Below are positions 6,181 through 56,136 of a stretch of 64,000 bases of DNA, piece by piece. Within the stretch, counting starts at the first letter, position 1; every line of letters begins with the position of its first letter. The notes below the pieces were generated by a model. The model searched no databases. It was given only the letters and a program-made list of their open reading frames with translations, and had not been told where the DNA came from. The stretch lies in assembly GCA_044892505.1 (NCBI GenBank), contig CM097882.1:434806001-434870000 (forward strand), written 5' to 3'. The position numbers were made by a program, and so were the translations under genes. The stretch comes from Schmidtea nova. Taxonomy: Eukaryota.

Positions 6181-8104
6181 ATTTTATTGGCATTAATATC
6201 GAAGAGCTGCTTGAAACGCACCCCGATATGGTGCTTGGGGCTGGCGCCAAATACGTCGAAAACTGTGTTGTATGCAAGAATACAATGACAGCAATCAGCC
6301 CATATTTTGATTGCCGAAATGAGGAAGGTGTACCATTCAGATATTTAAAACACTAATAAATTCTGAAGATGTTGTCTGTGATACCGAATATTTTATTTAA
6401 ATAAAATTTTATTTAAGATTGATGTGTTTTTCTTGGAGGAAAGTTATTTTTCATGATGTGAGATTTTTAGATTTTTGGAAATTGTGAAAGTCGATTTCTT
6501 TTCGTGGGAATTAGTTCATGGAGAACTGGCCTTTAAAATTCATAATGTTTTTTCTACATTTATTGAAAAAATTTATAAATTATCGAAAAATTTAATTAAA
6601 TTCAAAAGTTTTGAAAATATTTTCAAAAAAGTTAAAATTTTTTTAAAATTTCCCTATATTACACTATCGATTACGGAATAAATATTATTATGTCATTGAT
6701 TAAGAAATAAAAATTTGATATAATCGATTATATAATTGATTATGTGATTATAAATAATTTCGTCATTTTGAAGTATTAAATAATTTTTCTAAACCCCCTA
6801 GAAATTCTGGTATTATCTGTATATTTATTACGTATCTTATACAGTTTAGGAATAAATGGCTTGTTCCAGACCGCTTTTTTCTCTCTACGTGTAAAAATTG
6901 TTTCTATCTGTTTCGAAATTAAGTGATATAATAATCAACAAATTTATAAATTAAATAAATCTTTGCAAAAGGTGTTAAATGAAAATTTTCTACTTAAAAT
7001 CTGTACATTAACTAAGATTTCAAAAAAACAATTTTAATGAAAAAGAAAGTTTTATAAAAATATCTTCTGTTTAAATATTGACAAAATATTTCTGATCGGT
7101 TTAATTGTCTTTATTACAAAGAAATTTCATTAAAACAAATTTTAAAAATGTAAGCATAAATACTCGACATTTTTAATTTTTGATTAAGTATACCTATAAG
7201 GAATTCGATCAATTTCCATTCAAAAGATTTGTAGAAAGAATTTGATCTTAAAATCTATGAAAATTGAAAATGACTTCAAAATGACAGAGTTGATAAATCT
7301 AAAATTTTTACCGTGGAATAACTTATCAAAAACCTTGAATGATCGAAATTGACCTTGAATAATAGATTATTTTCTGGAGAGTTTCTCTTTAATTCCTAAT
7401 TTTATTTTCAAAGAGAATCATATAAACTTGAGGCAATTGTGGAGAAACTGCCAGTTGGTTGAATAGTGAGAAATCAAAATAAAAAGAGCGGAGGCGAATT
7501 AGGAAAAGAAAGCGAACAAAGAATATAAAGAGTTTATAAAGGCGATCTCCCTTTGGGTTACATACCTTGCCATAAAAATAATAAAAGTGCCAATCAAATT
7601 CGATGGAGTTGTGACAATATTGTTTAGAATTATTTTGAATTATAAATAAATTTATTATGTTGGGTGTCTTTATTTAATTTGCATAGAAAGCGCGAGGAGT
7701 CAGGTTACAATACCGACTTTCCAGGTATAACCAATCGCCATTAATTGTGATGGACCCCACTTCCCATGGACGAGTTTACTTGGGATGTACAATTAAGGAG
7801 TTATATAAACAATTAAATATGTTCCGTTTTTTAAAACACAATTAAATTTTTTCATTCATATCAAAAGAAGTTATGGGGTTCGTTTGACAAATGTGAAAGC
7901 CGAGAAATTCATTGTGCTGGAATACACACATTATCTACAACTAATAACCATAGCAACTGTAACAATATTATTTCGGTTTTATTGGTTAAAATTCTTCAAC
8001 TTATATTCTTATTTTAAATTAATTTTTTTTTAATTTGCATTATGTTTTAATATTTTTAAATTTTAATTTTTTTTAAATATATTTCCTTTTTCAACCTTGC
8101 TCAG

Positions 8105-8271
8105 ATGGGTTGGCCTTATTCCACGATTATCTAAAATCCGAATATAGCGAAGAAAACATTGAATTTTGGATAGCATGTGAAGAATTCAAAACGATTACTA
8201 ATCCAAAGAAAATGGCATCGAGAGCTCAGAAAATAATAAAAGACTTTGTGACTACTCAGGCTCCTAAAGAA
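8105..8271 (+). CDS. RGS (regulator of G-protein signalling) domain protein, internal exon
   Basis: [28 protein letters not shown]...[14 protein letters not shown]; acceptor tcag at 8104, donor gtacgc at 8272. Confidence 0.9.
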
Positions 8272-8315
8272 GTACGCTTTTAATATTGGGTAAATTGATG
8301 TTATTCTAATTCTAG

Positions 8316-8774
8316 GTGAACATCGATTCCAAAACCCGACAAATTACATTAGAGAGTATCCAACACCCTAACTCAAACATGTTCGACATGGCCCAGAAAA
8401 GGATCCAGTCTCTAATGGAAATAGATTCTTATCAGCGATTCTTACGTTCCGAAATGTACCAAGCTTTAATGCAAGATATAAAAAAAGCAAGTATTCCAGA
8501 ACCAATCCCAAACTCATTGCCTCCTTCTGCAAAACCGTCTAGTATGATACAATCTGCTCAGAGCAGTGTTGATGTACCAGACTACGATAGCCTACTCTCA
8601 TTAAGAGATATACGCTCTTCGTGTTCATTCAGAAAGAGTAACAAGTCTGAATCAACAACGGCGACGTCAATTATCAGAATAAGCTCTGTCAGATCAACGC
8701 GATCAGATGCAGTGGCGGAAGCTAGCATTCCTCCGAGTTCGTCCGAAAATTGTTTGAAGCATAGCATTAGATAA
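8316..8774 (+). CDS. RGS domain protein, terminal coding exon (end of RGS box plus Ser-rich tail)
   Basis: VNIDSKTR...FDMAQKRIQSLMEIDSYQRFLRSEMY; 44-bp intron 8272-8315 (gt...ag) in frame; TAA at 8772-8774. Confidence 0.9.
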   Translation: MNIDSKTRQITLESIQHPNSNMFDMAQKRIQSLMEIDSYQRFLRSEMYQALMQDIKKASIPEPIPNSLPPSAKPSSMIQSAQSSVDVPDYDSLLSLRDIRSSCSFRKSNKSESTTATSIIRISSVRSTRSDAVAEASIPPSSSENCLKHSIR

Positions 8775-11238: not shown

Positions 11239-12516
11239 CGTGGTGCGTTCAATAAGTACAAATGACAAATTTTAGTTTTTTTGTGTAAATAAATAAATAA
11301 ATATAGTTTTTGATTTCAGTTATTGTTTTATTTTATCAAACGCATTAAAATTTTTATTGTGACATTTTGAATTTTCGTCGGTGTAATGATTTCAGACGTT
11401 GAGTATCGCAGCGATATCAAGTTCTTTGTGTTGCAGAAGAAGACGTACAGTGAAATCTACGATCTTTTGCAGTCAACTTACCTACATGACTCCCCATCTC
11501 TGACAACTGTTAAATATTGGGTCAGAGAGTTTAAAGGTGGTCGCACCTCCGTTTTTGATCAAGAAAAATCAGGTCAGCCACAAGAAATTTTTGACACAGT
11601 TGATGAAAAATTGGAGAAGATTGTCCAAGAAGATCGTCGAATCACCATGAAAATGCTGTCAATGAAGCTCAACATCAGTGTTGGTACAGCTCACGCCAAA
11701 TTGAAATACATTGGTATCAGAAAACTGTGCTCCAGATTCGTACCCCGCTTCTTGACTGGTGAAATGATGCGAAACCGCTTGGAGTGCAGTCAGAACAACT
11801 TGAACCTGTGGGACCAGCATGGTGAGACTTTCCTGGCAAATTTAATAACGGAGGATGAAACCTCACTCAGTATGTATTTGCCGGAAACAAAGCGTGAGTC
11901 AGCAGAGTGGAAACTGCCTGGAGAGAAGCCATCTTTGAAGATGCGAACGGGGACAAGTCATGGGCGAGCGATGATGCTTTCCATTTTCTGGGATCATAAA
12001 GGTGTTATTCTCATTGATTTCGCGGATAAAGGCATCACCATCAACGCTGTCTATTACAGCCAACTCGTGGCAACCGCCAGAAAGAATAGACGGAAGCAGA
12101 AGAATACGCCACTATGGTTTCTCCACGACAATGCACCAGTGCACACAGTGGGCTTTTCTCGGGCCACAATTGAAGGTGCTGGACTAGTGCTTGTGGATCA
12201 TCCGCCTTACAGCCCAGATTTGGCACCAAGCGATTTTTACCTCTTTAGACACCTAAAGAAGCATTTGAGAGGCACCCAGTTTGGATGCAAAGACGATTTG
12301 AAGGTTGCCGTGGAGGATTTCTTCAATGCATGTCCCCGAGATTTCTTCAAAAATGCGTTTTCTGAGTTGATTATTCATTGGCGGAAGTGTGTGGAGCGAA
12401 ATGGACATTATGTTGAAAAATGATGCCAACATACGTTAAGCTTGTTGTTTTATAAAAATGGCCCATTTTGGAATTCGTTTTCTTCGTCAGGTCGGGTACT
12501 TATTGAACGCACCACG
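11239..12516 (+). mobile_element. Full-length mariner (DD34D) DNA transposon
   Basis: 21-bp TIRs cgtggtgcgttcaataagtac / gtacttattgaacgcaccacg; TA target duplications at 11237-38 and 12517-18; 1278 bp. Confidence 0.97.
11386..12423 (+). CDS. Mariner transposase, 345 aa, uninterrupted
   Basis: FVPRFL, ITEDET, FLHDNAPVH, YSPDLAPSD; 34 residues between 2nd and 3rd Asp. Confidence 0.97.
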   Translation: MISDVEYRSDIKFFVLQKKTYSEIYDLLQSTYLHDSPSLTTVKYWVREFKGGRTSVFDQEKSGQPQEIFDTVDEKLEKIVQEDRRITMKMLSMKLNISVGTAHAKLKYIGIRKLCSRFVPRFLTGEMMRNRLECSQNNLNLWDQHGETFLANLITEDETSLSMYLPETKRESAEWKLPGEKPSLKMRTGTSHGRAMMLSIFWDHKGVILIDFADKGITINAVYYSQLVATARKNRRKQKNTPLWFLHDNAPVHTVGFSRATIEGAGLVLVDHPPYSPDLAPSDFYLFRHLKKHLRGTQFGCKDDLKVAVEDFFNACPRDFFKNAFSELIIHWRKCVERNGHYVEK

Positions 12517-17904: not shown

Positions 17905-18700
17905 AAACCACTCAGTTACCTTTTCCTCTTTAAAGTCTTTTTCCATTTGTATAGCAGCGAACTTAGTAGTTTCTGCTTGTATCTTTTCAATAAATAACTA
18001 TTTTTCATTTCGTCCTCTCGTTTGATATTAATAATTCTGACTTCCAGGGTTTCTAATAATCCAACGAATGCTTCTATTTCAGCATTTCATTTTCACGAAC
18101 GGGTCGGAATCTGTCTATGTCTTCAAGATCAGTTAAATAAATTCTTTCTTCACCGCCAAATTTTCTATCGAGCTTTTCCTTTGCCATTTGGTAACTGGAG
18201 GAAGAAAACTCTAAATTTTTGATCAACTTTAACGGCTCACCTTTCAGATATCATCATCATGTTTCATCATCATCACCATGTGCACTATCAACACAAGCAT
18301 GGAAGGCAGCTTTCCAAATTTTGTATTCTTTCTGTTTTCCATCAAATATCTGGATTTGTATCCTCTGCATTTTATCTAATTTTTTCTTTGTTACATTCCA
18401 ACCAACCTCTTTAATTGTGTTGTTGTCATCCCACCTAACTGACTGATTGGCCTTTGACGAAATTAGCTCTTCCACTTTCTCATTTTTTCTTCAATCTCTT
18501 TTAAGTCCGCTTCTAGCACAATTGTTATATTTGGGCTTCCTAATCCTTTGCTTATGTCCAACAGTTTATCAAAACTCTCTATGGCACTTTCAATTGCTTC
18601 TTGAAATTCATTAGGCATATGTGACGCATCTTCTGCCAGCATCTCGTTTATCCATTTGTTTCTCAATCTCGTCAATATATATTTAACACTCCTTTTCTTT
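17905..18700 (-). pseudogene. gag: BEL/Pao Gag (DUF1759-like) relic
   Basis: IQIFDGKQKEYKIWKAAFHACVD...LKGEPLKLIKNL...YQMAKEKLDRKFGG...IDRFRPVR across frameshifts. Confidence 0.8.
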
Positions 18701-18732
18701 CTTTATCCTTCATCTAATTCTTCCTCCTCATT

Positions 18733-18956
18733 CCCTCCACACAATCTCAATGATAAATGAATAGTGGACCCATCCTGTATAATGTAATCCGATAACTTTG
18801 GGCTTCCTTCTAAATGCTTGCCAACATAAATTAACCTTTGTTGCACAGGCTGAGATCCTTTTTGTCTTGGATTTTTTCTTTTACCTTCGCAACTTTGTCA
18901 TTTATTACCACTTCAAGAGTGATAGTTTTCCTTGTCAATGTCTTCACAAACATCTG
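18733..18956 (-). pseudogene. Ubiquitin-like domain (one frameshift), in frame with downstream BEL/Pao Gag
   Basis: [29 protein letters not shown] / [39 protein letters not shown]. Confidence 0.85.
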
Positions 18957-19392
18957 TCTTACCTCTCTTGATCGCCCAACCACATGCGGATACCTATCAC
19001 GAGTGCCTTCCCTACCCATATTCTCCAAGAATTTAAAAGAATGCTGGGGCCCATAGCAGCACCTTTTCCCAATATCTTGTGGCCAAGCCATTCCCCTCTT
19101 CACCTCCATTTTATCACACAAACTTAAAATCTTAACTTTCTTTCCACCTCTAGATTTCTCTTTATCCCTCGTCTTGCACATTACTCCCTTTTTTAAACCC
19201 CCCTAACATATTTCCTCTTTCATAACGCGTTTCGAATGGAAGGTTAGTCAATTCCGCACTCACAACCCCGTAAACAATCCACAAAAGTTCACACAAATTA
19301 AACTCAAAATAAAAAAATTGTCAAATAAAATGTAATAAAAAACTAACAGGCTAGACCCTGAGTTTCCAAGTTGTGCGTTGTCCCCCAATGGG

Positions 19393-19410
19393 AACCACGC
19401 TCTACTACCA
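19393..19410 (-). promoter_or_regulatory. Primer-binding site (tRNAi-Met type) directly after an LTR 3' end
   Basis: Minus strand ...ggatctggACA c TGGTAGTAGAGCGTGGTT, closely resembling the TGGTAGCAGAG...GGTT tRNAi-Met PBS. Confidence 0.7.
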
Positions 19411-19779
19411 GTGTCCAGATCCAGGTCAGTTCTGATTGAGCAGGATGTTGAGAAACGAAAGAATGCCGCATTTCAAAGAGAGAGCGATTTGTTGAAGGAC
19501 TCGAATTCCAGTGTGTCGTGCTTACCAGGATTTCTCAGGTGATGAAGTCAGTGTGACAAAATCATATAGATGTGCTTAAAAATGTTTGGCATAGACTTTG
19601 AAACGATCTGCAGGTAGATTACCGCCAGAGAAACGTGAAATAATTATTACGATTAATGGATTCCATGATTCTCTGTGCTTTTCCGGTTTCAAGTACCTAA
19701 AGGAACATTAAGACAATGCAAATATTCCAACTCCAACACAATTTGTCCGGAATAGAACCGAGAGATGCTATCTAGAACA

Positions 19780-19990
19780 CACAAATGATTCCTCAACTGT
19801 GATGCGAAAAGCGGATTGAAAATCCAACGACATTCATATATTGATATCACCTTTTCGATCTTATAATAATCTATTACTAGATTCTTGATTTGTGAAGTTG
19901 TCCCAACAAAATTTGTTTCATTGTCAGATAAAATAAGCTTCGGAATTTCTCTGCGTGCTGTAAATCTTAAGAACGCATCAGTTTCCAGTC
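19780..19990 (-). pseudogene. BEL/Pao integrase fragment
   Basis: LETDAFLRFTARREIPKLILSDNETNFVG and RWIFNP match BEL/Pao integrase (RRFIARRG.P..I.SDNGTNFVG; W.FNP). Confidence 0.7.
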
Positions 19991-27386: not shown

Positions 27387-30154
27387 CAGGCCTGGCCAAC
27401 CCAAATCGCTCTGCGGGCCAACTTTTTTATCCAAAATTTTATGCGGGCTATATAATATACGAAAACCCCAATTTTTATTGAAATATTTGTTTGAATTATT
27501 TCAGTACATAGATTTATTTGAACCATTCCAAGAAAAACATCTATTTTTATATTTACACTAGATTTTTTTTATTGTTTCAAGAACATTTTTATTGAACCAT
27601 TTATTTTTATTATTTCACTACACTTAAGTATAATATTTATTAATGAGATGTTTGCTTTTCTTTGCGATCGCTCAATGCTTTTAAATCTACATCAATTTGG
27701 GTAGTTGCACATCGTAATTGGCTTTCAAGGTTTTCGTCTGTTAATGAAGCGCGAAATTTACTTTTGGTAAATTTCATTTTTGAAAAAAAGGCTTCACAAA
27801 CATATGTAGATCCGAAGGCGCTTACAATTTTTTGAGCGAATAATCTTAAGTTAGGATACCTTTCTGCTGTTATATACGTGTTGTAGAATTCGATTTTTGA
27901 TGTCGTCTTATGAACCTGCTTCAACTCATTGTTACACTGCAAATTAATTATTTCCATCTGTAAAGCTTCTGGAACAGTGAAAGCGTCAACTTGAAATGGT
28001 GAAGAAAATATCTCAAACGTTTTGTCATATTTTGTAAGTTCTGAGAAACGACGAGTAAATGCAGCTGAAAGTTTTATAATTTCATCAGCGTACTTTGCAA
28101 AATTAATAGCTTGACTGCTATTAAATTCTTTTAATAACGGAAAATGGTGAAGATTGTTATTTCGAAGTTGGGACTCAAATAAAATTAGCTTGGTTTGGAA
28201 TGCTTTGATATGATTACAAGCATCAATAATTAAATTATCTTGCCCCTGTAACTCCTTGTTTAGCTGGTTAATTTTTTCGGTTATATCTACTAAAAAACAC
28301 AGGTCCAACAACCACATATCGTCATTTAAATTTGAAACTGGAGTTCCCTCTTCAGCCATAAAATTTTCTATTTCCACCCGTAATTCAAAAAATCTTTTTA
28401 AACATGTTCCGCGACTCAACCATCTAACTTTGGTAAAATAGACAATATCGCCGTATTCCGAACTTAATTCGTCAAGGTATGCTCTGAACTTGCGATGCTG
28501 AAGCGCATGTGATTGATTATAGCTAACTGTTTTTATTACCACATCCATGACATGGTTCATGGACAATACCTGGGCACATAAATTTTGCTGATGTATCAAA
28601 CAGTGTATTACAAATATTTCACTGGGTTTAACAGATGTAGCTTCAAGTTCATCCATAAACAACTTTACGGTTCCTTTATTTTTACCAATCATAGCAGGCG
28701 CACCATCCGTTGTTAGTCCAGAAAGCTTCTCTAAATGTAAAGAATTACAGGATAAACATTTTTTTATAGCGTGGAAAACATCCTCTCCTCTAGTGGTGTC
28801 TTTCAAATTTAAAAGATTTAACATTTCTTATGTCACTCCGAAAGAATCGTTAACTCCACGAATAAATACAGCAAGTTGTGATGTATCTGAAATATCTGTA
28901 CTTTCGTCGAAAGCTAGAGAATATGCTTTGAATTGTTGAATCCGCTCTCGTAAAGTCACCACTATTTCATCCGAAATATCATTAATGCGACGACAAATAG
29001 TTTGACGCGACAAACTTATGCACGAAATCATTTTATGTTTATCTGGCATAACATCTTCTATAACAGCTGCCAAACATTCTTTTACAAATTCTCCGTCCGA
29101 AAATGGTTTCATTTTCTTAGCGATTAACATTGCGACAGAGTAGCTTGCTTTAACAATATTAGAAGGTAGTTGTAATGAAGAACTAAACATTTTCTGCTGA
29201 GATTTTAATTCGGATTTTAGCTCGGCCAATTTAATTTTTCTCAATTCACTATTAAATTTCACATACACGTCGTGTTTCGTTTCATGATGTCTTTTAACAT
29301 TGTATTCCTTAAAAACAGCTATTGTATCTCGGCAAATCAAACATGTTAATTTTGAGTACTACATTATAAAGAAATAATTTTCTTCCCAATGATCGCTGTA
29401 TTTTCTGTTTTCTTCTGAAACTCTTCTTTTTTTGGAATTCATTCTAAAGGCCATGTATAATTATTCAAAATAAGTGCATTTACTGTTACTTACTTATTTA
29501 TTTAATTTTTCTGGTATAGAAATATAATTAATTAGATTTTTTATATTACTTTTTTTGTGTTATATAATTTGATATTGTTTATCACTTAAAAATACGCCAC
29601 TTCATATCTTAACAAAAACAAAGCCAAACTAAAAAGGTTTTTCAATAATTGTCGCCATCTTTAGTTATATTTTTCTGGCAAAGCCTACTATATAAATATT
29701 TTTGAATTACTCGTTTAAATCTTTTACTTATGAATAAATATATATGCACGGAAAACGGATTTTTCTGCCAACTGAGAAAACTGATTTTTTCCAAAAAAGT
29801 ATACTGTGTGTCCATTTCATTACATAAAACAAAAATGTTTACAACAATTTTATTACACGTAAAAATATGCAATCAAATAAAAACCAATGAAGATTATGAA
29901 TATAAACTTTTCACAAAACAAAAATTATAATGAGACGGACTAAAAAACATAACAAAAACTTTTTAATATTGAATTTTGTAGTCAATTTTTTTCTAAAAAG
30001 TCTGTATTTAATAATTTGGGTAGATTTTGTAATATATTTATTTTTTTATAGATTCTGTAAAAAAATTTTACCGCGAATAATAATCATGCCACGGGCCGCA
30101 AAATATACACAAAGGGCCGCATGCGGCCCGCGGGCCGCGGGTTGGCCACGCCTG
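27387..30154 (-). mobile_element. Full-length hAT transposon, SPIN/Buster/Charlie (GTF2IRD2-like) group
   Basis: TIRs caggcctggccaacc / ggttggccacgcctg; 8-bp TSD gtatagac / gtatagat with central TA; 2768 bp. Confidence 0.95.
27640..29454 (-). pseudogene. SPIN-like hAT transposase with two in-frame stops
   Basis: CLICRDTIAVFKEYNVKRHHETKH, LAFDESTD, TTDGAPAM, HCLIHQ, VRWLSRG, FGSTYVCEAFFS; stops near 29360 and at 28828. Confidence 0.93.
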
Positions 30155-39922: not shown

Positions 39923-40693
39923 TTATACCAATGTGGACCTCGTATATTCACCTGGTATATATTTACCCAAATGGAAATGCCCTACATTTCGGCTCCGATA
40001 CCGCTGCCTTTTCCATTTGTACTTTTTGTAGATTTGTATGCTAGTTACTAAAGCTAAGACTACTAATGTTATTACTGATGCTGTGATGATATAATAAGGT
40101 CAATGTGGCTTTTTATCCTTTTTTTGAAATGCTTGTAGTTCCTCTAAGTTATGTATAATTGTTGGTTTTCCTTGCTCTATTTTTATAGATTCTTGTTTTA
40201 GTTTTTGTTTCTTAGCATAGTATTGTTTTTGGAATTTTGTTCGTCTAGTGTTTGTTGGTATATGTGGTGTGGTATTTACTATATTATTTGATGTCGTTAT
40301 TTTTATATTTATTTCTTTTATTTTTGTGTTTTCTATTCTATCGGGTGTTGTTATTAGGTTTTTGGATAATTGTTCTGTTCTTATTTTTTTGCATATCCAT
40401 ATTGTTGTATCTGTGTTTCTTTGTATGCAGATTCTGTATGTTGTATTAGGTGTCAGTTTTGTGAAGTTAACATAGTTTCCTATTTTGATTTCGTTGGTTG
40501 TTCTATCATCTTTTTCTTTTATCATCTTTGGATTTTCGTCATCCGTTGTTTGCATGTATATGTCAATTACTCCTCTGTTTATGATAAGTACTCTAACTTC
40601 ATTTGTTGATATTTTTATTAATACTTTGTCAAATTCTATTCTTTCGGTTGAACTAGCAAATGTTATGATTGTTAAGAAGATAGCCGACATCAT
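39923..40693 (-). pseudogene. Type I membrane module (signal-like segment, FN3-like domain, Thr-rich stalk, TM, short tail) in frame with integrase
   Basis: MMSAIFLTIITFASS; FTKLTPNTTYRICIQ..WICKKIRT; after in-frame TGA 40100-40102: YYIITASVITLVVLALVTSIQIY-KK; stop 39923-39925. Confidence 0.75.
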
Positions 40694-40699
40694 TAGTTT

Positions 40700-43215
40700 G
40701 TTATGCGATCTTCGATTATATTTATGGGGTTTCTCTACCGTGACCTCTGTTTCTGCAAGTTTGCATCTGTTAACATGTACTACTATTGGGTCTTCATTTT
40801 TCTGCTTTTGTAAATGTAAATTCTCATTTATTACTTTTACTACTTCATATGGACCTTTTTATGGTCTTACTAACTTTGTTGTTTTTCCTTTTCCTACTTG
40901 TGGTGACATAAGTCTAACCTTATCACCTACTTTAAAGTTATGTGGTTTACTGTTTTTGTCATAGTCGGCTTTGTATTGTTCTTGTCTAAATTTGACTTTT
41001 AAGTTAGCTACTTTATACACTTCTTGCAGTTTTTCCTGCATTAGTGTGACATAATCGGGTGCGTCTAGATATTGTGATACTCGAGGTTCAAAAATTGTAT
41101 CTATCGGTGTTGCTGGTTCTCTTAAAAACATTAAATAATACGGTGAATACCCTGTTGTTTCGTTTGGAGTGATATTATGAATGTATGTGCATTGACTTAT
41201 GTATTCGTCCCAATCATTTTGATTTTTTCCTACAAAAACAGCTAGTCTGCTTAGTAATGTCCCATTAAATCTTTCTACTAGTCCATCCGTTTGAGGGTGA
41301 TACGCTGTTGTGTTGATCTTTTGCATGTTAAAAATATTAGCTACTCGTTTTATTAATTCACTAGTAAAATTTGTTCCTTTATCTGTTAATAATCTTTTGG
41401 GTGTGCCTATCTTGAAAATTATTTTTTCTATAAGCAATTTAGCAACTGTTTCTGCTGTTTCGTCTTTTGTTGGAAATGCTTCTGCCCATCTAGTAAAATA
41501 ATCACTAAATACTAGTATATGTTTATTCCCATTAATTGTAGTAGGTAATTTACATAGAAAATCCATTGCACATAGTTCCATTGGTGATGTTGTTGCTGGA
41601 ATGGGGTGTAACGGCGCTTTTGTTTTTGTACCTGTATTTTTTCTTGTTGCACATATTGTACACGCGTTACACCATCTCTTAACATCTTTCTTTAATTCTT
41701 CCCAGTAATATTTTGTAATAATCTACTTGCTGTCTTTCTAGATGATAAGTGACCTCCTAATGCTCCATCGTGATATTGTAGTAGGAGTATTTGTCTTAAT
41801 TTCTGAGGTACTACTATTAATTGCTTACCATTGAAATCTTCTATTACTACTAATTTCTTTGATATTTTATACTTTGAATTGTTTTCTTTTCTGATTTCAT
41901 TCCTTATTATACTGATCTCCGGGTCTTTCATCTGTTCCTCATATATATCGATTTGCTTTTCTGCTACTAGTGCAAATATTTCAAGTGCTCCTAATTCTGG
42001 TATTCTTGATAATGCATCTGCGTTTTTATTTATTCTACCTGGTTTATATATAATTTTTAGGTGCATGTCTTGTATTTTCATTGCCCATTTAAGTAATCTA
42101 CTTGATGTATCTTTATGTTTCCATAAGCCTTCTAATGGTTTATGGTCTGTTCTTATTATCACTTCAGTCCCATAGATGTATGGTTTGAATTGTTTTAGGG
42201 CGAATACTATTGCTTAACATTCTTTTTCTATTGTTGAATACCTCAGCTGTGCTCCTTTTAATGTTTTACTGGCATATGCTATTACGTAATTTTTCCCTTT
42301 CTCTTCTTCTTGGCCTAAGACTGCTCCTACGACTTTCCCGCTGGCATCCGTCATTACTATAAACTGTTTTTCGAAATCTGGGTATCTTAACACTGGTGCT
42401 GTTATCAATCTTTCTTTTAGTTTGTCGAATGCTTCTTGATGTTCTTTTGTCCACTTCTTTTGTATCTTGTTAACTTTATTGTTAATTTCTTGTACTATTA
42501 ACACGTCTTTGCATTCTCCTTTTGTTTTAATTCCCTTTGTTAGTTCTATTATAGGTGTTGCTATCTTTGCATAATCTTGTATGAATTTATGATAGTATCC
42601 TGTTAAACCTAAAACCCTTGTACTTGTTGTACTGTTTTAGGTATTGGGAATTTCTTTACGACTTCTATTTTTTCTGGATTTGGTTTTATCCCTTCTACTG
42701 TAACTATATGCCCTAAAAATAGTGCCGAAGACTCTGCCCATTTACATTTGGTTGGTTTAATTTTTATCCTTGCTTTTCTTAGTCTCTCAAGTACGTTTGT
42801 TATATCTTTTAGATGTTCCTCGAATGTCTTTGATGATATTAATATGTCATCCATGTATACTGCACAGTGTTGTACATTTATTAATATTGTGTTCATTAGA
42901 CGTTGAAATGTGGCTGGCGCATTAGTTAATCCGAAGGGTAATCGTGTGTACTCATATAAACCATCCTCAATAACAAATGCTGTTTTCTCCGCATCCCCTT
43001 CTTCCATTTGAATTTGCATATACCCCTTATTCGCATCAATGACTGAAAAATACTTAGCATCCCTAAGTTTATCGTATTGCTCTTGTGCTTTTGGGAATGG
43101 ATATGAATCTTTTACTGTTACACCATTTAATTTACGATAGTCAATGCACATTCTTATTTCTCCGTCTTTCTTTTTGACGGGTACAATGGGTGATGCCCAC
43201 TGTGACAATGCCTTT
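40700..43215 (-). pseudogene. pol: Element 2 pol (RT 42609-43205, RNase H ~41990-42500, integrase ~40760-41780)
   Basis: RMCIDYRKLN, PFGLTNAPATFQR, YMDD, TDASG, DHKPL, YHDGALGGH, AMDFL, LTDKG, VERFNG, KGPY. Confidence 0.93.
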
Positions 43216-43244
43216 ACGAAAGCAAGTCTCTGTAGCATCTTACT

Positions 43245-46012
43245 GCCGTACTATCAACACCGCAAACTCTCTTCCGGTACGTTGTAAAGTACGCCCTCTT
43301 TCGAACGAAAAACTAGATTTTGTTCGCTCCGAATTCGCTACTTTGTTGAACGAAGGCATTATAAAAAGATCTAAATCTCCATGGTCTTCACCACTTCATC
43401 TCGTACCAAAGAAAGACGGAACTTTCAGACCTTGTAGAGATTATCGTCGTTTAAATATGATTACGGTTCACGACTCATATTCTATGCCTTTAGTAAACGA
43501 CATTTTGTACAGACTTACCGAGGCCAAAATATTTTCAACTACCGACTTAGTTAAGGCCTATCACCAAATCCCAGTTAAAGAATCTGACGTGGAAAAAACC
43601 GCAGTTTTAACACCTATCGGACTTTTTGAGTACGTTTTCATGCCGCTTGGTCTTAGAAATTCCGCTCAAACCTTTCAAAGACACATCGACCATTTTTTAA
43701 TGGATTTACCATTCGCAATTCCTTATATTGACGATATCCTCATTGGTTCTAAGGATGCGGAAACACACAAAAAACATTTAGATGCAGTTCTTTGCGCACT
43801 TTCTTCCAATAACCTACAGATTAATTTAGATAAGTGTTTATTTTTTAAAGAAGAAGTCCGTTTTTTAGGTCACATTATCTCGGGCCAAGGCGTCAGTTCA
43901 CCATCTGACAGACTAGATACTATATCTAAGTTTCCTCTTTCACAAACTGTTACTCAACTTCGGAGTTTTCTGGGAACAGTAAACTATTGCCACCGTTTTA
44001 TTCCTAAAATTTCAGAAATTCTTTCACCTCTTTCTGGTTACTGTTCTAGACCAAAGAAATCTATAATTCCTTGGATCGATACTTCGTTGCTCGCTTTTGA
44101 GCATGCTAAAACAGCCCTTTCAAACATACAGACTTTGCATTATCCACGAGGAGATTTGCCATTACGTTTAACCACAGACGCGTCAAACATAGCAATCGGT
44201 GCCGTTTTGCACCAGATAAACGGTTACATCCCAGAGCCACTAGAATTTTACTCAAAGAAACTTACCTCACCACAACAAAAATATTCAGCTTTCGACCGCG
44301 AACTTCTCGCTATTTTCCAGTCGGTTAAACATTTTAAGCATTTACTCGAGGGCCGTCTTTTTAGCATCCATACAGACCATAAGTCACTTGTTTACTTGTT
44401 CTCAATGAAAGACCCTTCTCCGAGACAACAACGCCAGATTAGCTATAGTAGCGAATTTTCTTGCCAAATATATCACATCGCCGGCAGTGATAACATTATA
44501 GCTGATTGCCTCTCACAAAATGTAAACGCAATTATCCATTGTCCTTTATTTTCTATCGACGAACTCCAAAATAATCCTCCAGATGCCATTGATATTTCGA
44601 AATTTGGCGACAAACATATAATCAAAGACAAAATTCACTACGACTCATCTCTTCCTGGCACTCTTCGCCCAATCTTGAACGACTCCATGAGAAAACCGGC
44701 TTTTCTATCTATCCACAACGAGCACCACCCAGGTTCCTTAGCCACTTTTAATCTATTACACACGTGTGTAGTTTGGCCAAACATGAGACATGATGTTAAA
44801 CTCTGGGTTGCACAATGCATAGGATGCCAACGTTTTAAAATAATTAAGCACACAAAACCTCCAATAATTCATTATCCCACTGGCAACCGTTTCGAAAACT
44901 TACACATTGACATCGTCGGCCCAGTCCCAAGTGACTGCGGTTTTTCTTACTTAACCATGATCGACCGCAAGACTCGTTGGTTCGAAGTCATTCCTTTACG
45001 CACCATTTCTTCTAACACTATCGCAACTTCGCTAATTCAAAATTGGATTTCACGATATGGAGTTCCCAAGTCGATCATCAGTGATCGCGGAACACAGTTT
45101 GAATCTAACTTATTTCAAGCTTTGACCGCTAAACTTGGGATACAACATCTTCGTACGACCACATATCATCCACAAACAAACGGGTTAGTCGAACTTTTCC
45201 ATCGTACTTTAAAAGCTTCTCTTGGCATTCTTTCTGAACAACAAGGTTGGACAAAGGTTTTACCTTTCGTATTATTAGGTTGGCGAAATACACCTTCTAG
45301 GACTACAGGATCATCACCTGCTCAATTACTTTTCGGTACAAACACATCGTTACCCGGTCAACTTGTCGACTTTGATAACTCTCCTACTTTGGAAGATCTC
45401 GCGATTGCCAGAGACCATTTTTTATCAATCGACACTAATCCTGAATTCTCTTCCGCGACCACCTATAAACCTTACATTCCAAAAACATTCGAAAAGGCAT
45501 CACACGTCTATATTAGAAATATAACTGATGCAAGTTTAAAGCCAAGATATTACGGACCTTACAAGCTCGTCGAGATTAAAGAAAACAACGCGAAAGTGAT
45601 CGTTAACGACGCTACACAAACATTTAACCTCTGCCGTCTTAAACCAGCTTTAGTTTTGCTCGATGATGAACCTCCATCTGACAATTTCTCGACCCAAACC
45701 GATATAATCCCGAACTCTCACATAAACGATAATGACCCTATCAATTCCACTGAGGACGATCTTTCCAACAACTCACTTTCATACCCGATTGTTCAAATAT
45801 CAGACGCAGAAAACAAAATTACGGAAAAATCTGAATACATACCGTTTATCCCAGAACCAAATGACGTACTTCGTTTACCACCCATTTTGAGGAAAGCAAA
45901 TCAAACACAAAATAAACCAAAGTCCGTCACTTACAACAAATGGGTTCGTGTCCGTTCTATTAATCAAAAACCGGATTCACCAACCAGACTAATAAAAATC
46001 TATTCAAATTAA
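43245..46012 (+). CDS. pol: CsRn1-like Ty3/Gypsy pol (RT-RNaseH-INT), open frame but 5'-truncated (no gag or protease)
   Basis: SPWSSP, PLGLRNSAQTFQR, YIDD, TDAS, DRELLA, DHK, HNEHHPG..CIGC, HIDIVG, ISDRG, VELFH, YYGPY. Confidence 0.93.
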
Positions 46013-46212
46013 CTGCATCACTTTCCACCAAGTTCTATTAGTTTTTTTTCTCGGTTTCCTAAATTTCTTTCGCAATTCTTTCTCAGGTTCTTCCATTTCA
46101 TTCACAAATCTTTCCAAATACTTTCTGGACACTACAAAATACCATATTATTATATACTAAACTACTATATTACGTATCTACATTATAGTATTTCAAAATG
46201 TCCTCCGCATCT

Positions 46213-46290
46213 TCCTATGGGGGCTGATGAAGTGGTCTAGAAAGCCGATATCGAAGATTCTCTCAAATGATATTAGATTTTCAACAAGTC
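46213..46290 (+). promoter_or_regulatory. PPT-like G-run and start of a truncated 3' LTR
   Basis: tcctatgggggctga then TGAAGTGG at 46228; same arrangement as 3247-3263. Confidence 0.5.
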
Positions 46291-46536
46291 AAATGACGAT
46301 TTACCTCCAAAAACAATCTTAGTAAAAAAATAATATAAAATTTTAAACTGTGATAAAATTGTAAAACTTTTATTAATATCCTTGTACAAAAACATTTTGT
46401 TTTAATTAAAGGTATAAATATTGGGATTTTTAAAATAGATAGTTTGAGAAGTTTATTCAATTCGTTAAATTTTTTGAAATAGAAATTTTTGAAATTTATT
46501 ACATTTTCAAAGATTATAATATTAAAAGCATTAATT

Positions 46537-46888
46537 ATGATTCTTTTATGCTTCTTTATCAGTGTTCTGCTACAGACAAACAACTAATGAATGTCCATGT
46601 TTTATATCGACATGGCGATAGAGCACCTGTTATTATATATCCAACTGATAAGAATAGGGAAGACAAGTGGCCCAATGGGATTGGAGGATTAACAAATCGA
46701 GGAATTATGCAGCATTTTAATTTGGGCATGTGGCTACGACGTCGTTACAATGACTTCCTTGGGCAATATTTAAACTATTCATTAATAGAGCATTAATGTC
46801 TGCCGAATCAAATCTAGCAGGTTTATTCAACAACCTATCTAAAGAAGTGATCAACGGTCTAAAGTGGCATCCTTTCCCGATTCAAACT
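46537..46888 (+). pseudogene. Intronless fragment of a histidine acid phosphatase (ACP2/ACPP-like)
   Basis: Signal-like start, VLYRHGDRAP, WPNGIGGLTNRG, LGMWLRRRY, RALMSAESNLAGLF, WHPFPI; frameshift and internal deletion. Confidence 0.85.
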
Positions 46889-46961
46889 CGATCAAGACAT
46901 TTGTGTTTATCACCACCAAAATTTGCCTTTCTTCATTCCTTTGGATTTTTATTAAACGTAT

Positions 46962-48137
46962 TTATTTATCATGTTTTGCCGTAATCAGGTATTTGGCTAC
47001 AAACGGGCATAAACATGCTAGTAATTTATATGAATTTCCGAATACTTGTTTCAGCTGTCGTAGTGATTCTAAGGAAGAACAAATCATTTTTAGTAAAAAC
47101 AACCGTATAGTAAATTCCCAAAATTGTAGAGAACATGTTTCCAAGGACTGCAAAATATCCCCATATACTATATAATACTTTATATACTACTTTTTTGAAA
47201 TATTCTTTTGATAACACCACGTCAGAGTTGTAATTTCCTCCATAACTTCCTTCGATAACTTTGTTCACCATTATTGACAGTATTCCTTCTTTTTCGTTTG
47301 GGAATAACATGTGTTTTCTTGCACTTTCTATAGCTTCTCTCGTATATATGCCATTGCTATCCATATCGTTGATTTCTTTAAACTCCAATCTTTTTTCAAG
47401 CTCTATGAGTTTTAATTTGAGGGGTTTCATCGCCTCTTTCCTATCTGACATAGATATCCACATTTCGTCATTTATCTTATATAATGGATTAGTACATTTT
47501 TCTATTTTTCTTGGTACATAAGTTTTTTCTGTTAGTATTCTCGTAATCGGTTGAAGGTATACTCTTTCTCCTTTGTATACTACAGGTAACTCGTTTGTGC
47601 ACTGATTGTTTGTTGCTAATGATACACTAACAGGTTTACATTGGAATGTCTGTATTACTTCCCCTACTATTCTAGCAAATGTTCCCTCTTCTGAAAAGAT
47701 TATTGGGGCCATTAAATCTTGGTTTGTTACTGCGACTGCCATTTTTGTTCTTAATATTTCTCGGTTGAGTTTGCAATCGCTCATAATTGTTGATTGGTAC
47801 ACTTTATCTAGTTGCACTAACTGATTATGATAGAAGAAATCGATTTTATTGTTAAAATACGAAGCGAGTTTGACGTTGAATTTGTTTACTTTCTGTTTTG
47901 CATCTTTAACTTCTTCCTTACTTACGTATATCCCTTCATAATTAGTTCGTATTATTTCCTTACCGCATTTTACACTTTTTCCTTTACTAACAAACCTCAT
48001 TTCTTCATTTTCGGATTCTGACATATATATTGTTGGTGTATCTTTTTCTTGTACAATTGTTGTTTTTCTTTTCTGATCTCTTACTCTTTTAGAATCTACT
48101 TCTGTGAACTGCTTCCCTTTAATTTCTCTAAATTCTC
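46962..48137 (-). pseudogene. env: Chuvirus-like class III fusion glycoprotein (env-like), C-terminal two-thirds with TM
   Basis: CGKEIIRTNYEGIY..YFNNKIDFFY..DCKLNREIL..GTFARIVGEVIQTFQCKPV..CTNELPV..YLQPITRIL..WGYFAVLGNMFSTILGIYY; frameshift near 47080. Confidence 0.8.
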
Positions 48138-48265
48138 GTTTCAAAAATTTAGGAAACGAGCGAATTTACAAAATGTAAAAATCTCTGGAGAGGCAGGCAG
48201 TGCTGATAATAAAGCTGCTGAGGATTTTGTAGCTAAATTCGATGATTTCCTTAAAGAAGAAAATC
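48138..48265 (+). mobile_element. Internal pogo/Tigger transposase fragment
   Basis: FQKFRKRANLQNVKISGEAGSADNKAAEDF matches the Tigger/pogo motif RFKKR..L.NVK..GEAASAD. Confidence 0.75.
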
Positions 48266-49400
48266 TATTTATTACCCAACTCATCCATCCTTCTTCGGAT
48301 TCTTCTCTTTCTACTCTTGTTAAACGGTTTATTTCTACTGCTTGTCTTTGATTGATGTTACTTATAGTTTGATTTTCTCTGGTGAGCTCAGTTATAACTC
48401 TTTTTTGCTCTTCTGTTCTATGCAATTGTTCAAAACAGTTGTTATAACTCTCTGATAATAGAATTTGTCTTTCCGCTAGTTGGTTTTGTAATGAGTTGAC
48501 TGTTCGTACTAGTAAATCACATTGCGCTTTCCATCTCATGGCCATAGTTATTTCAGTTGTTTCGTCTTGTTCGTTCATTTCTAAATTATATACATCAATT
48601 ACTTTCTCGTTTTCTCTTTTTATGTATTTTATAATATCGATACCCATACTATTACGGTAATGCTTTATTATTTATACTATTATTTACAGTCATAATCCGC
48701 CCCTATACTCTCATTACTTTCCTTTCGTCGTATCTCTCTTCATCTTCTATTTGCTTCCAAAATTCTTTACCTTTCGTTCTTCTTTGAAATTCTTTCTGTA
48801 TTTCTTCTGGTATTTCTATTCTTTGATTCGTAATTTTAATATCTGGCCATTGTATGGCTGTCGCTTTATTTCTCCTCCTGTACATCCAACATACTATCAT
48901 GCTCGTTGTCAGTATTCCACCTGTTATTAATATTCCCATACTAATTACTCCTATTACTATTTTACCAGTGTTTGTTTCTTTGGTTTTATTCTGATTCACC
49001 CTTATCTCATATTTGTCTTGGATTTGAGCCTCCGGCTTCCTCTCCTTCTGCGCTTGGCTCTTGACTTTGTTCATTACTTCTTGTGTAGACCAATGGTGGT
49101 TTAGTATTTGTTTGGCGTAGTTTTCCGTTGTTCGGTTTCTCATGTTTCCTGTTTCGATATGTTGATTCAGTTTCTCCGAGATCTGGTATGATCCGCACTC
49201 TGTCTCCTCTGAATTTTTTCCTGTAAAGGTACATATCGCGTATGTCTCATTTACCTCCTTTTGCCTTAATTCGACTTTTCCCTTGTTCCCTGTTTCTTTA
49301 CAATGGGTTAGGTTATCTTCTTCTACTTCTGGGTTATGTTTTATCCAACATACTCCTTTCACAGTCTGTTTGAGTCCTATTAATGTTAAATTATTATTTC
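48264..49400 (-). mobile_element. Fragment of a sister copy of the giant element (last FN3-like repeat, TM, tail, spacer and coiled-coil ORF)
   Basis: Collinear with ~56177-57310; proteins 48703..49362 and 48264..48578 closely match 56622..57280 and 56137..56493. Confidence 0.93.
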
Positions 49401-49953
49401 CTAGCGATTTTTCTTTTGAGCGCGTTATTCACTAATATATAACGAACAACTGTTTTATAACTAAGTTTTATTAATATATTACAAATGCTGGGTTCATGGA
49501 GGGGTTAGATGGAAAATGCTCTAACAATGACTAGGGATCCCTCATCCATGATCATGCATAAAATTGCAATTCTACACTCAAGCGCCCTTGATTATTTCCC
49601 TATATAATCAAGTTGGTGATGCGCAGGGTGGTTAAACAATGATGGGCAGGTGAGCACTATCGCTAGTACTACTCCCCATTTATGTTTACGGGTTCATCGC
49701 TGCCGTTAGAAGGACTTATGCTTTAATCATCTACTTATGTATTCCGCGTTAATCTTTCAGAAAATTTATTTTTATCATTGCTCAGTCTGCGAGAAGTATT
49801 TCAACGAATGCTCGCTTAATGATTTAATTATCTCTATTCGATATTTTGTAAAATGAATTTATACTTTTGTTCTATCTTTATCTAATCATTGGTAAAGTTA
49901 ATTAAATCAATTTAAATGAACGATAAAATTCTTAAGCCAATACAACAATTTAT

Positions 49954-50550
49954 TTAATTTTTAATTAGTTCGGTAAAAACTCCCGCCGGAGGAAAAATCT
50001 CCGTCAATAATGCCTCCTCGGTCATCTGATGTAGACCATCTACTTGGCTTTGTAATCGCTGGGCAAATAATTTTCTCCGTCTCCGCCGTTTCTGCCCAAT
50101 GCGCTTGCGTTTCTGGTGCGCATTTGCCGATGAGGTGGTTGAATTTGCTGCAGGAGCGGTCTCATTCCGACTTTCGATTAGATCGGCGACATCCGTGCCA
50201 ATAGAGGTTACCGTCTTCTTTTCTGATGTCCAAGCTTGATACGTAACCGGACGGATTTGCTCTCTGAGCTCTTTCTCAATATATGAGGCCGTTACGGAAT
50301 GGAGGCATTTTCGGAGTTCTATCTTTGTAGCCTCCCATTCCTTTTGATAATCGGCTGCCGTCTGTTGGGCGCGCTCGGTTTTACTGATTTGCTCCTTCAT
50401 TCGGGCCGGAGCAAACCAGCTTTTGCGCAAGTATGCAATCTGTGCCTCTGCTTTGATCAATTGTGCCTTGAGGAGACCCAATTCCTTGTCCTGGGCTCTC
50501 CGAATCCGCCACATCTTTTCCAATTCTCTCTGCATCAAATCGGTGTTCAT
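49954..50550 (-). CDS. Hypothetical coiled-coil protein with basic NLS-like tract, inside the putative LTR
   Basis: 198-aa ATG ORF; KRKRIGQKRRRRRK; TAG-a-ATG context. Confidence 0.55.
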   Translation of the reverse strand: MNTDLMQRELEKMWRIRRAQDKELGLLKAQLIKAEAQIAYLRKSWFAPARMKEQISKTERAQQTAADYQKEWEATKIELRKCLHSVTASYIEKELREQIRPVTYQAWTSEKKTVTSIGTDVADLIESRNETAPAANSTTSSANAHQKRKRIGQKRRRRRKLFAQRLQSQVDGLHQMTEEALLTEIFPPAGVFTELIKN

Positions 50551-50727
50551 TCTATAATTTGTTTAGGATATTTACTCTATGATTTAATTATATAAAAATT
50601 AAAATCTGATCATAGGATTATTAGGTTACGAATATGAACTATTAAAATGCGAAACAAAACTCAAAAACAAAAATTCACTAATGAACTCTAATATTTTAAC
50701 ACAATTTCAACATTTGTTAATCAGTTT

Positions 50728-51204
50728 TCATCTCCGAAACAAACTATGCAATTCACTGTTAATCGGTTTCTGACGAAGACGAGCCCAAGAGAATGAGGGT
50801 TGTCCTTTCTGGCACTCCTTGCCGAACGGTTTTCGTGGTAAGAATTCGTACAGACCCAGTTGGCATAGCTCTCGACGAGGGATATGCCCCCAATAAATTA
50901 CACGGCTTGTCCGTCCATCTGTGTCCTTGATCAGTACGACAAGTCGGCCAAATTTGTTTGAGTACGGCCTTTGGGAAATCGGCCAGTTCGGTCCTCCTCG
51001 ATAGAGTATTTTATCGTTTCCTCCGTCCCAGATGGAAAACGGGCACTTTCGACCAAACCCTTGCCGCCACTTGTATGCTTGGGCGTTAATGGTCCGCAGA
51101 ATTGGCTGGGGCAACTCCTTGAGCTGATTGGCCCATCCATTCGCCCTGTCCTCCTTTCCTGAGTTCCGAATCCGCATTAATCTTTCGTTCAACGATGTCC
51201 GCAT
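50728..51204 (-). CDS. Hypothetical basic protein inside the putative LTR
   Basis: 158-aa ATG ORF, relatively GC-rich island flanked by AT-rich spacers; CAG-ATG context. Confidence 0.5.
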   Translation of the reverse strand: MRTSLNERLMRIRNSGKEDRANGWANQLKELPQPILRTINAQAYKWRQGFGRKCPFSIWDGGNDKILYRGGPNWPISQRPYSNKFGRLVVLIKDTDGRTSRVIYWGHIPRRELCQLGLYEFLPRKPFGKECQKGQPSFSWARLRQKPINSELHSLFRR

Positions 51205-52841
51205 CTGTCATTTTATTTTATTCAATAAAGAGTTGAATGTAAATTATATTTAATCTCCATCGTTTTAGTTAATTCCATTTCGTGATTAAACCATTGCCGC
51301 GATATACCACGGTCGAATAAGATATTTGTTTTCCCTGCGCCATGTACGACGATCAGGATAAGATTAATCTGAGTTACCGCGCTATGTACAGCGATCGGCA
51401 TAAAAGTATTTTTAGAATTTACAGATTTTTAGTTTTATTTAGAATGGAATTTAAAGTATTTTTAGAATGTACCAATTTTCAGTTTTACTAATCTCTGTCA
51501 TGCAGTTGCGATATCCTGTACCTTGACCTCAATTGAAAATCATCAGTTTGATCGATTTACTTGGAAAATTTTTATAACTTGTCATGCTACGCCGGCTCTC
51601 TCGTCCTCAAATTTAACCTCAGCGTGTCAACCCATTTGTCTCGGGTACCTGACACTTATCGGGTACTTTACCCCTTCCTGGTATCTCCTTAGACCTTCTC
51701 TACCGCCGCTGCGCTACGTCCCCTGTACAACCAAATGATGACTTTTTACCTATCGCCAGAAAACCGTCTGGACGTATTCGCATTATTGATATTTCGTGAC
51801 TGAAAATTTACTCGACTAAATAAGCATCAAAATTCTCTAATCTCGCTGATAAATATCTGGTTAACTTTGAATGATTTACTTTAATTGTTTCAACTACCAA
51901 ATTAAAAATGAAAACCAAAACAATAAAAAGGTTGAACCGCCATGTGAGACCGTGAGGCCCCACAACGACGACTCGGACTCCCTCGCCGCGTGAGCAGCAT
52001 AGGAAGTATAACTATATGCATTAAAAATAATAAAAAAAATAAAAAATAAAAAATAACGTTTACATATAAGATTTTAATTAAATAAAAATCATGGGTACAT
52101 CATATAAGATAACATAAAAAAAATTACTTCCGTACTTGAATGTGTGGTTCCTTGTATGAAATTCGGTTCTTTCAAAAAATTTACTCAAATCAAAGTTTAG
52201 TCTTGATTGTGAGTGAAAAGTAAACGTCTAAGTCTGTGATTTTTGGATCGGTATTTATACTGATCCGTCTGGTTGGATTGACCAATCAGGATCAGGCCGT
52301 CCTTCAAAGTATTTTTATTATTTTAATCTAACCTAAACATTATTTTGTTTCCTTTTCCGGTTTCTCGCTGGGTGGTCCTGATTTTCCAAGTAATTAATTA
52401 ATTATTTGTACTATTATTTTATTTAATTCTATTTTTTCTTATTTCAGGCCCCCTTTTGCGGTTGTTTACCGGTTTATTTTCAAAATTTCCTTTTACTGAA
52501 AATTTATCAATTATTATTTGTCGTTTTATTGTTATTTTTAATTTGTTTTTCTTGCTATTTTTATTTTTATTATTTCTTTATTGTTTCATGCTTTTGTTCG
52601 TTTTATTGTGTTTTTAGGTGATTTGGCGGGCCCAACATCACCCGGGGACCCCTAAAATTGCGTCCCGCAATTAATTATACATAAATACTTATATTCATCA
52701 TCCATAAAAAGTTTTATAAAGTTATACATGCAAGAAAGAAAATCACATAAGGTGATCGAATTTATACATATCATAAAGTTTGTCACTAAATAGTCAAAAT
52801 GTAATGATTTGTCACAATAGTTCGATAAGTTATCATAATGT

Positions 52842-53411
52842 TTATACAATTTGTTCGATCGTCTGGCTCGCTTGGGGTTGAGTTCGGGTCCTCTCGTTGA
52901 TTATTTGTAGCTCGTAGTGGGTTTGAATGTGGTTGAGATGGCTCCTTATTCGTCTTTGAGCTCGGTTATCTCGTCTGGAGGTTTGGTTGTAGATTTTCTG
53001 CTTTTGTTTTAGGATTTTTATTCTATATGAGGCAAGCAGGATTGTGATTGCGATGATAGTTGTGCTGACTGCTAGGATTATGATGATTGCTATGATCCAT
53101 TTTCCTTGATATTCTATTTCAGCTTGGGATAGGCTTTTTATGGGTTCTCTACCTTCTTTCAGGATTTTTCGGGTTTCTTCTAGTTTCAGTTGTTGTTTAT
53201 CGAAGATTTGTTGGATTTGATGGTCTTGATTGTGAGGGTATTTCTGTCGGAATTCGTTGATTTCTTTAATTACTTCTTCGATTAGGCTGTCTACTTTCTG
53301 ATAGGTTTTGTCGGGTAGAACTCGTAATTGGGTTTCGGTTAGTTGTAGATCTTCTCTCTGTAGGGTAATGGTTGTTAACCATAGGAGTGTTGCTATTGCG
53401 AGCTTTCTCAT
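52842..53411 (-). CDS. Small type I membrane protein (signal peptide, helical ectodomain, TM, basic tail)
   Basis: MRKLAIATLLWLTTITL; WIIAIIIILAVSTTIIAITILLASY followed by RIK. Confidence 0.7.
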   Translation of the reverse strand: MRKLAIATLLWLTTITLQREDLQLTETQLRVLPDKTYQKVDSLIEEVIKEINEFRQKYPHNQDHQIQQIFDKQQLKLEETRKILKEGREPIKSLSQAEIEYQGKWIIAIIIILAVSTTIIAITILLASYRIKILKQKQKIYNQTSRRDNRAQRRIRSHLNHIQTHYELQIINERTRTQPQASQTIEQIV

Positions 53412-53486
53412 CTCTTTTATACATCGGTCAATACAGCTTGACACTTTTTATTTTACATAATTTATTTACACTTGGTTTCCGCACAT

Positions 53487-54548: not shown

Positions 54549-54667
54549 TTCTATAATTACAGATAAAACGAATATTTAATCATTTTTTATTTTTATTTTT
54601 ATTGTTTTTGATTATTTGTTAATTCATATTGTTTCTATACATTTTATTTACATGGTTACTTCCTTCA

Positions 54668-56044: not shown

Positions 56045-56136
56045 TTTCTACAATAATATATACATTCGACTTGTCATTTATTTTTGGTTTTTCTTGTTTT
56101 TATTTTTACATATTTACAATTTTCCGCTTTATTTAT

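Follow-up and report, generated by a model that had tools for sequence, protein, structure and literature searches.

An in-frame, ubiquitin-derived domain before Gag in BEL/Pao retrotransposons of Schmidtea nova

Linear fusions of ubiquitin are processed after the terminal Gly-Gly (GG) both in the ubiquitin–ribosomal protein fusions UBA52 and RPS27A and in the ubiquitin fusion technique, and a proline following GG blocks this cleavage (PMC9703124). In UBA52 and RPS27A ubiquitin is N-terminal and invariant, whereas in the elements described here it is internal and divergent. A viral counterpart is provided by the cytopathic pestiviruses (BVDV Osloss, CP1, CP Rit), in which host ubiquitin mRNA is inserted in frame into the polyprotein, often together with other cellular pieces, and cellular hydrolases cut it to create the N-terminus of the next protein (PMC8310069, PMC13517609), that of NS3 in cytopathic BVDV (PMC8310069). 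Here, the corresponding cut is predicted. An origin from host ubiquitin mRNA in frame just before Gag applies to family C, to the young copies of family A, and to one further copy, L094 (82–86% DNA identity). The pestivirus insertions are sporadic and are called an evolutionary dead end, while in S. nova the ubiquitin is fixed in an old, successful clade, renewed, and retained down to 29% identity.

Capture of host mRNA by LTR elements is also well known. In LTR-mediated retroposition, partial mRNAs of several genes become joined within LTR elements, as in the Pao chimeras BATUMI and BEL18_AG (PMC5131818, whose main text does not contain the word ubiquitin). There, the retrocopy replaces the coding part of the element, while in the elements described here the captures lie in the LTR and leader, and Gag-Pol is retained in frame. 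The giant gypsy elements Burro and GYPSM1 of planarians carry extra host-like domains in one polyprotein, and a Ubi2/SUMO motif is mentioned for them (PMC6431247); however, they belong to another superfamily and their Gag is N-terminal, so that the motif stands downstream of Gag and is not a GG-ended unit before it. A ubiquitin-like domain (UBL) within 1.5 kb of a gypsy gag was found in 0 of 30 gypsy loci, a small and biased sample.

The elements studied here are members of BEL/Pao (Belpaoviridae), with TG...CA LTR ends, target duplications of 5–6 bp, a tRNA primer-binding site (PBS), a polypurine tract, and a single Gag-Pol frame with DUF1759, protease, RT, Peptidase_A17, integrase, and DUF5641. 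They depart from the BEL/Pao norm in having a reading frame that already begins within the LTR and runs on across the PBS, with host gene mosaics and ubiquitin ahead of Gag. A sequence-only reading of this DNA knew of no such fusion in BEL/Pao, and a full-text literature search likewise found this architecture nowhere in print; subscription papers lay mostly outside that search, as did supplements and repeat libraries, and those of flatworm genome papers could list UBL-Gag domains. The clade carries a host-derived ubiquitin in frame before Gag, and it is probable that host deubiquitinases cut after its Gly-Gly, releasing Gag-Pol from a variable leader.

The copy in the window and its family

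The window, a stretch of 64,000 nucleotides, carries on its minus strand an old, dead member of a UBL-Gag BEL/Pao family. The order proposed by the sequence-only reading (LTR end, PBS, leader, ubiquitin-family domain, stop, Gag) stands, but the two frame continuities that it assumed do not hold in this copy: a frameshift near 18,859 splits the supposedly complete UBL, and the supposed same-frame run into DUF1759 breaks within Gag near 18,485, 18,264–18,257, 18,080, and 17,940. What remains of the 5′ LTR is its decayed 3′ part (19,411–19,799), which from 19,799 is 82% identical in DNA to copy L061. In its coding frame this part corresponds (70% amino-acid match) to the frame read in the nearest copy's LTR, where there is a weak kinase-like match only (Pkinase, E 0.017, below the cut-off). 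Upstream lies a minus-strand fragment of the integrase region of the same family (19,795–19,976; 84–88% identity to three family copies), labelled here a rearranged or tandem remnant.

The PBS (19,410–19,393) was correctly recognized as being of the initiator tRNA-Met type, since 17 of its 18 bases agree with the 3′ terminus of a host tRNA-Met that bears initiator features; it reads GSRAWFP in the frame of the N-terminal half of the UBL. A long tandem array of such genes for tRNA-Met, with 458-bp spacing, lies on C1 from 510.09 Mb, with 1,060 pattern matches genome-wide. The leader between PBS and UBL (18,960–19,392) has three stops in the UBL frame and carries a CYGPQHSF motif common to other families. 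Both halves of the ubiquitin-derived domain (18,733–18,959) match PF00240. The domain ends in RLCGG; then come the acidic residues NEEELDEG, with which Gag is predicted to begin after the cut, a stop at 18,705–18,703 (stretch and stop together 18,703–18,732), and RKKRSVKY... of Gag (17,909–18,702). The latter comprises N-terminal helices and DUF1759 (about 18,346–17,909; a weak match, E 0.047), and the copy stops at 17,909, lacking both the 3′ LTR and pol apart from the integrase fragment. Contigs assembled from sequencing runs show zero differences from the window where run X1 spans the UBL frameshift and where X1 and X2 span the boundary stop, so these lesions look real, with the reservation that both runs come from a single study and possibly from the same sample as the assembly.

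A DNA search of the same genome yielded 2,079 candidates, 40 of which were scored to give 30 loci of the window's family (old family A), the window included. The N-terminal half of the UBL is matched in 30/30 loci and the C-terminal half in 29/30, at an identical position throughout, and the stop at the boundary occurs in the window copy alone, 29/29 others having a sense codon there. Four of these 29 are free of stops from the UBL through DUF1759, which bears out the expected continuous UBL-Gag frame; two copies that were profiled have PF00240 (E 1e-20 and 4e-19) and DUF1759 (E 2e-12 and 7e-12) in one frame. The retained halves, the boundary sense codon, and the one-frame Pfam matches together mean that the fusion is not due to chance. 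Neither a polyA tract nor a target duplication was seen at the UBL in the translated family copies; this, the shared position, and the constraint described below rule out a chance retrocopy or processed ubiquitin pseudogene. The UBL-Gag fusion is thus confirmed in part for the window copy and in full for its family.

In two family copies the LTRs form pairs (96.4 and 98.3% identical) that lie about 7 kb from each other and flank Pao-type pol domains. LTR pairs are 95.6–98.3% identical in four old family-A copies and mostly 98–100% in young ones. The young branch of family A has the same Gag and a UBL also ending in RLCGG; its top 150 matches are 96–100% identical, most within long open frames. 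Position 74 is Cys and position 70 Ser in 27–28 of the 30 copies of the window's family, and the RLCGG end of the young, nearly identical copies implies that Cys74 is not a product of decay.

Related families and the origin of the ubiquitin module

The layout UBL-GG-acidic stretch-Gag is common to six BEL/Pao families of this genome, A (old and young), B, C, D, and E, whose Gag proteins are 34–56% identical between families. A UBL lies upstream in 29 of the 30 best DUF1759 loci, the remaining one having an N gap there, and in 20 of 20 loci chosen for diversity. A ubiquitin search gave 2,605 candidates as a first-look count; the 30 loci fetched comprise 14 host units and 16 element-linked ones. 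In family copies, paired LTRs, PBS, polypurine tract, and short target duplication are all present; Gag has DUF1759 (PF03564) and Cys-His knuckle motifs, and Pol has the order protease, RT, RNase H (Peptidase_A17), integrase, DUF5641.

Outside this assembly, eight proteins of ENA, JGI, and Logan records have the same layout: P0001, P0002, and, among the best 150 cluster representatives, six more, of which five were recognized by a UBL match and one begins at an LKGG tail. The remaining 144 representatives, many of them partial, do not have it, and a search for near-length homologues gave one weak match. A quick RT tree was built from 33 rows, restricted to BEL-type sequences without a gypsy or copia outgroup and to single matches of at least 250 residues (14 of 60 loci, 19 of 20 proteins); in it the 16 UBL-bearing rows form one group (SH-aLRT 99). 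Its sister is formed by the nearest outside relatives, P0003, which belongs to a cluster with jellyfish members, and P0004; unlike the S. nova elements, both lack the UBL. The young copy L151 has a family-A Gag, and its RT groups with family C rather than with old family A (compared with L148/L149 and L066/L076), which we read from these groupings as Gag-Pol recombination between families. Several young copies (L081–L084, L088, L136, L138, L139) are internally shortened and keep a single LTR-to-LTR open frame; pol domains are missing in the one shortened copy scanned.

Judged by its residues, the UBL is derived from ubiquitin and is not the canonical, near-invariant 76-residue protein ending in LRLRGG. 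It is 67–83% identical to ubiquitin in the window's family (67–71% to host ubiquitin in the stop-free copies) and 29–93% in the others. Q2, I36, T66, G75, and G76 are invariant across nine lineages, and only L73, G75, and G76 across 16 sequences; GG is retained even in UBLs 29–45% identical to ubiquitin and is present in all six of the further outside proteins. A motif search found GG ending the last unit in 70 of 76 loci outside old family A. Three loci differ, and three others were missed by the search (one N gap, two showing GG on inspection). In the 70 loci scored GG, the next residue is N, S, M, or G, never proline. The functional surface residues of ubiquitin I44, K63, V70, R72, and R74 differ among families: position 74 is altered in families A, D, and E, and R72 is absent from families C (one copy shown) and D. 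The core hydrophobic positions are conserved.

Comparison of silent and coding changes points to purifying selection on the UBL. Among variants of the window's family present in three or more copies (shared variants), the synonymous to non-synonymous ratio is 19:24 in the UBL against 41:118 among rare ones (p 0.024). A similar silent enrichment is found in Gag (51:44 shared, 156:402 rare), while the last 24 leader codons before the UBL (2:16 among shared variants) show no silent enrichment and no detectable amino-acid constraint. In family B, the UBL and the nearest host unit differ with pS 0.60–0.64 and pN 0.05–0.06; comparison of three young copies of family A gives the UBL a pN/pS of 0.77. 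Where a leftover tail of a preceding ubiquitin is present, it serves as a modest control, the copies not being independent: it keeps LxGG in 33/51 loci against 46/51 for the Gag-proximal unit, with G76 present in 51/51 and G75 in 44/51 of the leftover tails. Structure prediction gives a beta-grasp fold (pLDDT about 90), a low-confidence GG loop (65), and a separate helical Gag part; a single-sequence fold of UBL-Gag, with a mean pLDDT of 36, was not used.

Sequence matches show that several of the UBLs come from different units of one host polyubiquitin gene. The gene has three units. The ubiquitin of family C aligns in register, at 82–84% over 270 bases, with the unit 1 tail, unit 2, and the unit 3 ATG; in L094 the match extends from unit 1 into unit 2 (86%), and for young family A it covers the end of unit 2 together with unit 3 (82%). 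Old family A is less specific (73%), and family E has no clear donor. The module has also been exchanged between families, as identities demonstrate: young and old family A share 86–89% of Gag and 60–64% of the UBL, whereas young A and B share 44% of Gag and 81% of the UBL. As Gag and UBL identities disagree in this way, ubiquitin has been replaced at least once, likely by template switching if the known captures are a guide. Six copies (L094, L196, L200, L146, L152, L154) have two ubiquitin units, or an older partial unit 5′ of a newer one, and we read them as probable intermediates of module replacement. The Gag comparison for L098 was left out because it looked misaligned.

The leader upstream of ubiquitin

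In young copies, the frame begins within the 5′ LTR, reads the PBS as GSRAWFP, and goes on through ubiquitin, Gag, and Pol. Upstream of ubiquitin it contains pieces of host genes: mitochondrial HSP70, glutathione reductase, HSP90, HECT, TPR, FHA, CobW, and calmodulin, as well as members of the ribonucleotide reductase, prenyltransferase, chaperonin, PAC1, CID, Paf67, SAM decarboxylase, and CTP-transferase families. In the alignment of one copy (L086), residue 1 of calmodulin falls on the earliest ATG of the frame. The leader before Gag's UBL is 100–650 residues long and changes among copies. Phase between PBS and UBL could be scored at 86 of 98 loci (12 were not scorable); it is kept at 63 of the 86 and in 27 of 42 distinct leader lengths, a count inflated by the many young loci selected for long frames. 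Only 10 of 23 copies of old family A are in phase from the PBS; in-frame Met codons stand just 5′ of its UBL, and an LTR start for this family is conjecture.

By the same comparison of silent and coding sites, the leader pieces tested are under no amino-acid constraint while the UBL is constrained. HSP70 and HSP90 pieces have pN/pS of 1.2–2.4, against 0.17–0.77 for the UBL and 0.11–0.36 for Gag; leader ratios above 1 may reflect mutation bias, and in the HSP90 pieces silent sites have diverged less than coding ones. The HSP70 piece is 92–94% identical to a host gene (pS 0.08–0.14) and was therefore captured long after the adjacent ubiquitin, and yet it has as many amino-acid changes as this older neighbour. 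An intron check of the HSP70 and prenyltransferase candidates did not establish a spliced-mRNA origin: the HSP70 donor gene is intronless across the match, and the candidate prenyltransferase donor was rejected for lack of a DNA match.

Prenyltransferase-beta has 131 matches in the genome, many nearly full-length and uninterrupted, several coinciding with family-E loci; a near-complete host coding sequence seems to have been amplified by the element. The LTR of L098 carries a TPR-containing piece that we take to resemble an FKBP-type co-chaperone. Of 24 listed copies, 11 lie in TTA/AAT or AT microsatellites (L081, L083–085, L088, L095, L099, L138, L140, L150, L151), which may point to a target preference.

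Predicted release of Gag and its alternatives

That cleavage after GG sets the Gag N-terminus is well supported by the conservation of these residues. Release by deubiquitinases is drawn from three features: an unconstrained in-frame leader, an invariant L-x-G-G without a following proline, and a cut near the starts of ubiquitin-less proteins. The predicted cut falls 21–27 residues before a TR motif shared with ubiquitin-less relatives, which themselves have Met and an acidic stretch 31–41 residues before it (both distances taken by eye, the latter from gene-caller starts). Translation would begin with an LTR-borne ATG (that of calmodulin in one copy); the leader would be disposable, needing only an open frame; and the cut would give the same Gag N-terminus whatever stands upstream. 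Such tolerance would let template switching keep adding host mRNA pieces and renewing ubiquitin. Cys74 and Ser70 in the window's family and the missing R72 of families C and D may slow cleavage, and GG could alternatively be kept as a flexible hinge. An N-degron as a common function was rejected, since N, S, M, and G all occur directly behind GG.

More tentative is the possibility that the clade has given up its own Gag start altogether, taking host start codons and coding pieces into the LTR, reading through the PBS, using host deubiquitinases as its first maturation protease, and renewing ubiquitin from host polyubiquitin mRNA, with mosaics that may shield it from piRNA silencing.

The rather unlikely alternative that the UBL stays attached or is slowly cut would make it a built-in tag of Gag, either a dose-limiting degron or a handle for trafficking factors. 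K11, K27, K29, and K48 are indeed retained in old family A (28–30 of 30 copies), three families have an altered position 74, and uncut ubiquitin fusions undergo degradation (PMC9703124). Against a tag, it is the cleavage-permitting GG with its non-proline neighbour that is invariant and not the I44/V70 patch, and an uncut fusion would leave the whole changing leader on Gag. For ubiquitin–ribosomal protein fusions, aid to expression or folding has been proposed. That ubiquitin here chiefly helps Gag in this way, cleavage being incidental, accords with the conserved hydrophobic core, the intact modelled fold, and the host's own fusions of this type. With the UBL placed inside the polyprotein, behind long leaders and in most cases lacking its own start codon, this is likewise unlikely, and because it too needs the cut, it differs from the deubiquitinase reading in emphasis only.

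It is quite unlikely that the released ubiquitin or the captured pieces are themselves the purpose, as protein decoys or as RNA camouflage that protects the element from silencing by piRNAs. In planarians, piRNAs do target LTR elements (PMC8532177), the cargo comes from housekeeping genes, so that targeting would strike essential host mRNAs, and the HSP90 pattern at silent sites fits camouflage. Abundant mRNAs, however, are also the most easily captured, and the leader pieces are fragments with fast turnover and no amino-acid constraint. The decoy role also considered by the sequence-only reading finds little support in the variable surface residues of the UBL. Camouflage is compatible with release by deubiquitinases and is a conjecture. 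Extremely improbable is a neutral passenger, a chance ubiquitin retrocopy in one lineage: LTR elements, Pao included, do take up mRNA pieces via template switching (PMC5131818), but a clade-wide UBL under purifying selection with an invariant GG refutes it in effect.

If release by deubiquitinases is true, a host enzyme takes the first step of Gag maturation in this retroelement lineage, and the sporadic pestivirus accident has here become a fixed design. The model would explain how an autonomous element carries and shuffles host gene pieces while keeping Gag. This would make the elements a large source of retrocopies; first-look counts genome-wide are 2,605 candidates for ubiquitin and 1,824 for HSP70, and most non-host loci examined are element copies. 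In this animal, host pieces carried by the elements can lead gene annotation and RNAi design astray, and the GG-ended UBLs, which grade naturally from 93% down to 29% identity, offer a probe of deubiquitinase requirements.

Elsewhere in the window, the minus strand carries a decayed Burro-like giant gypsy element (40,100–58,139) with MATH/TRAF, a Monjiviricetes-type fusion protein, RT, and integrase, and the plus strand a second gypsy pol frame of 944 residues (43,178–46,012); gypsy frames of roughly 4,990 residues are also present in this genome. A host RGS-domain gene with two exons (8,077–8,774) and a stop-free Mariner-type transposase frame of 350 residues (11,371–12,423) lie on the plus strand, and a hAT transposase remnant (27,640–28,827) on the minus strand.
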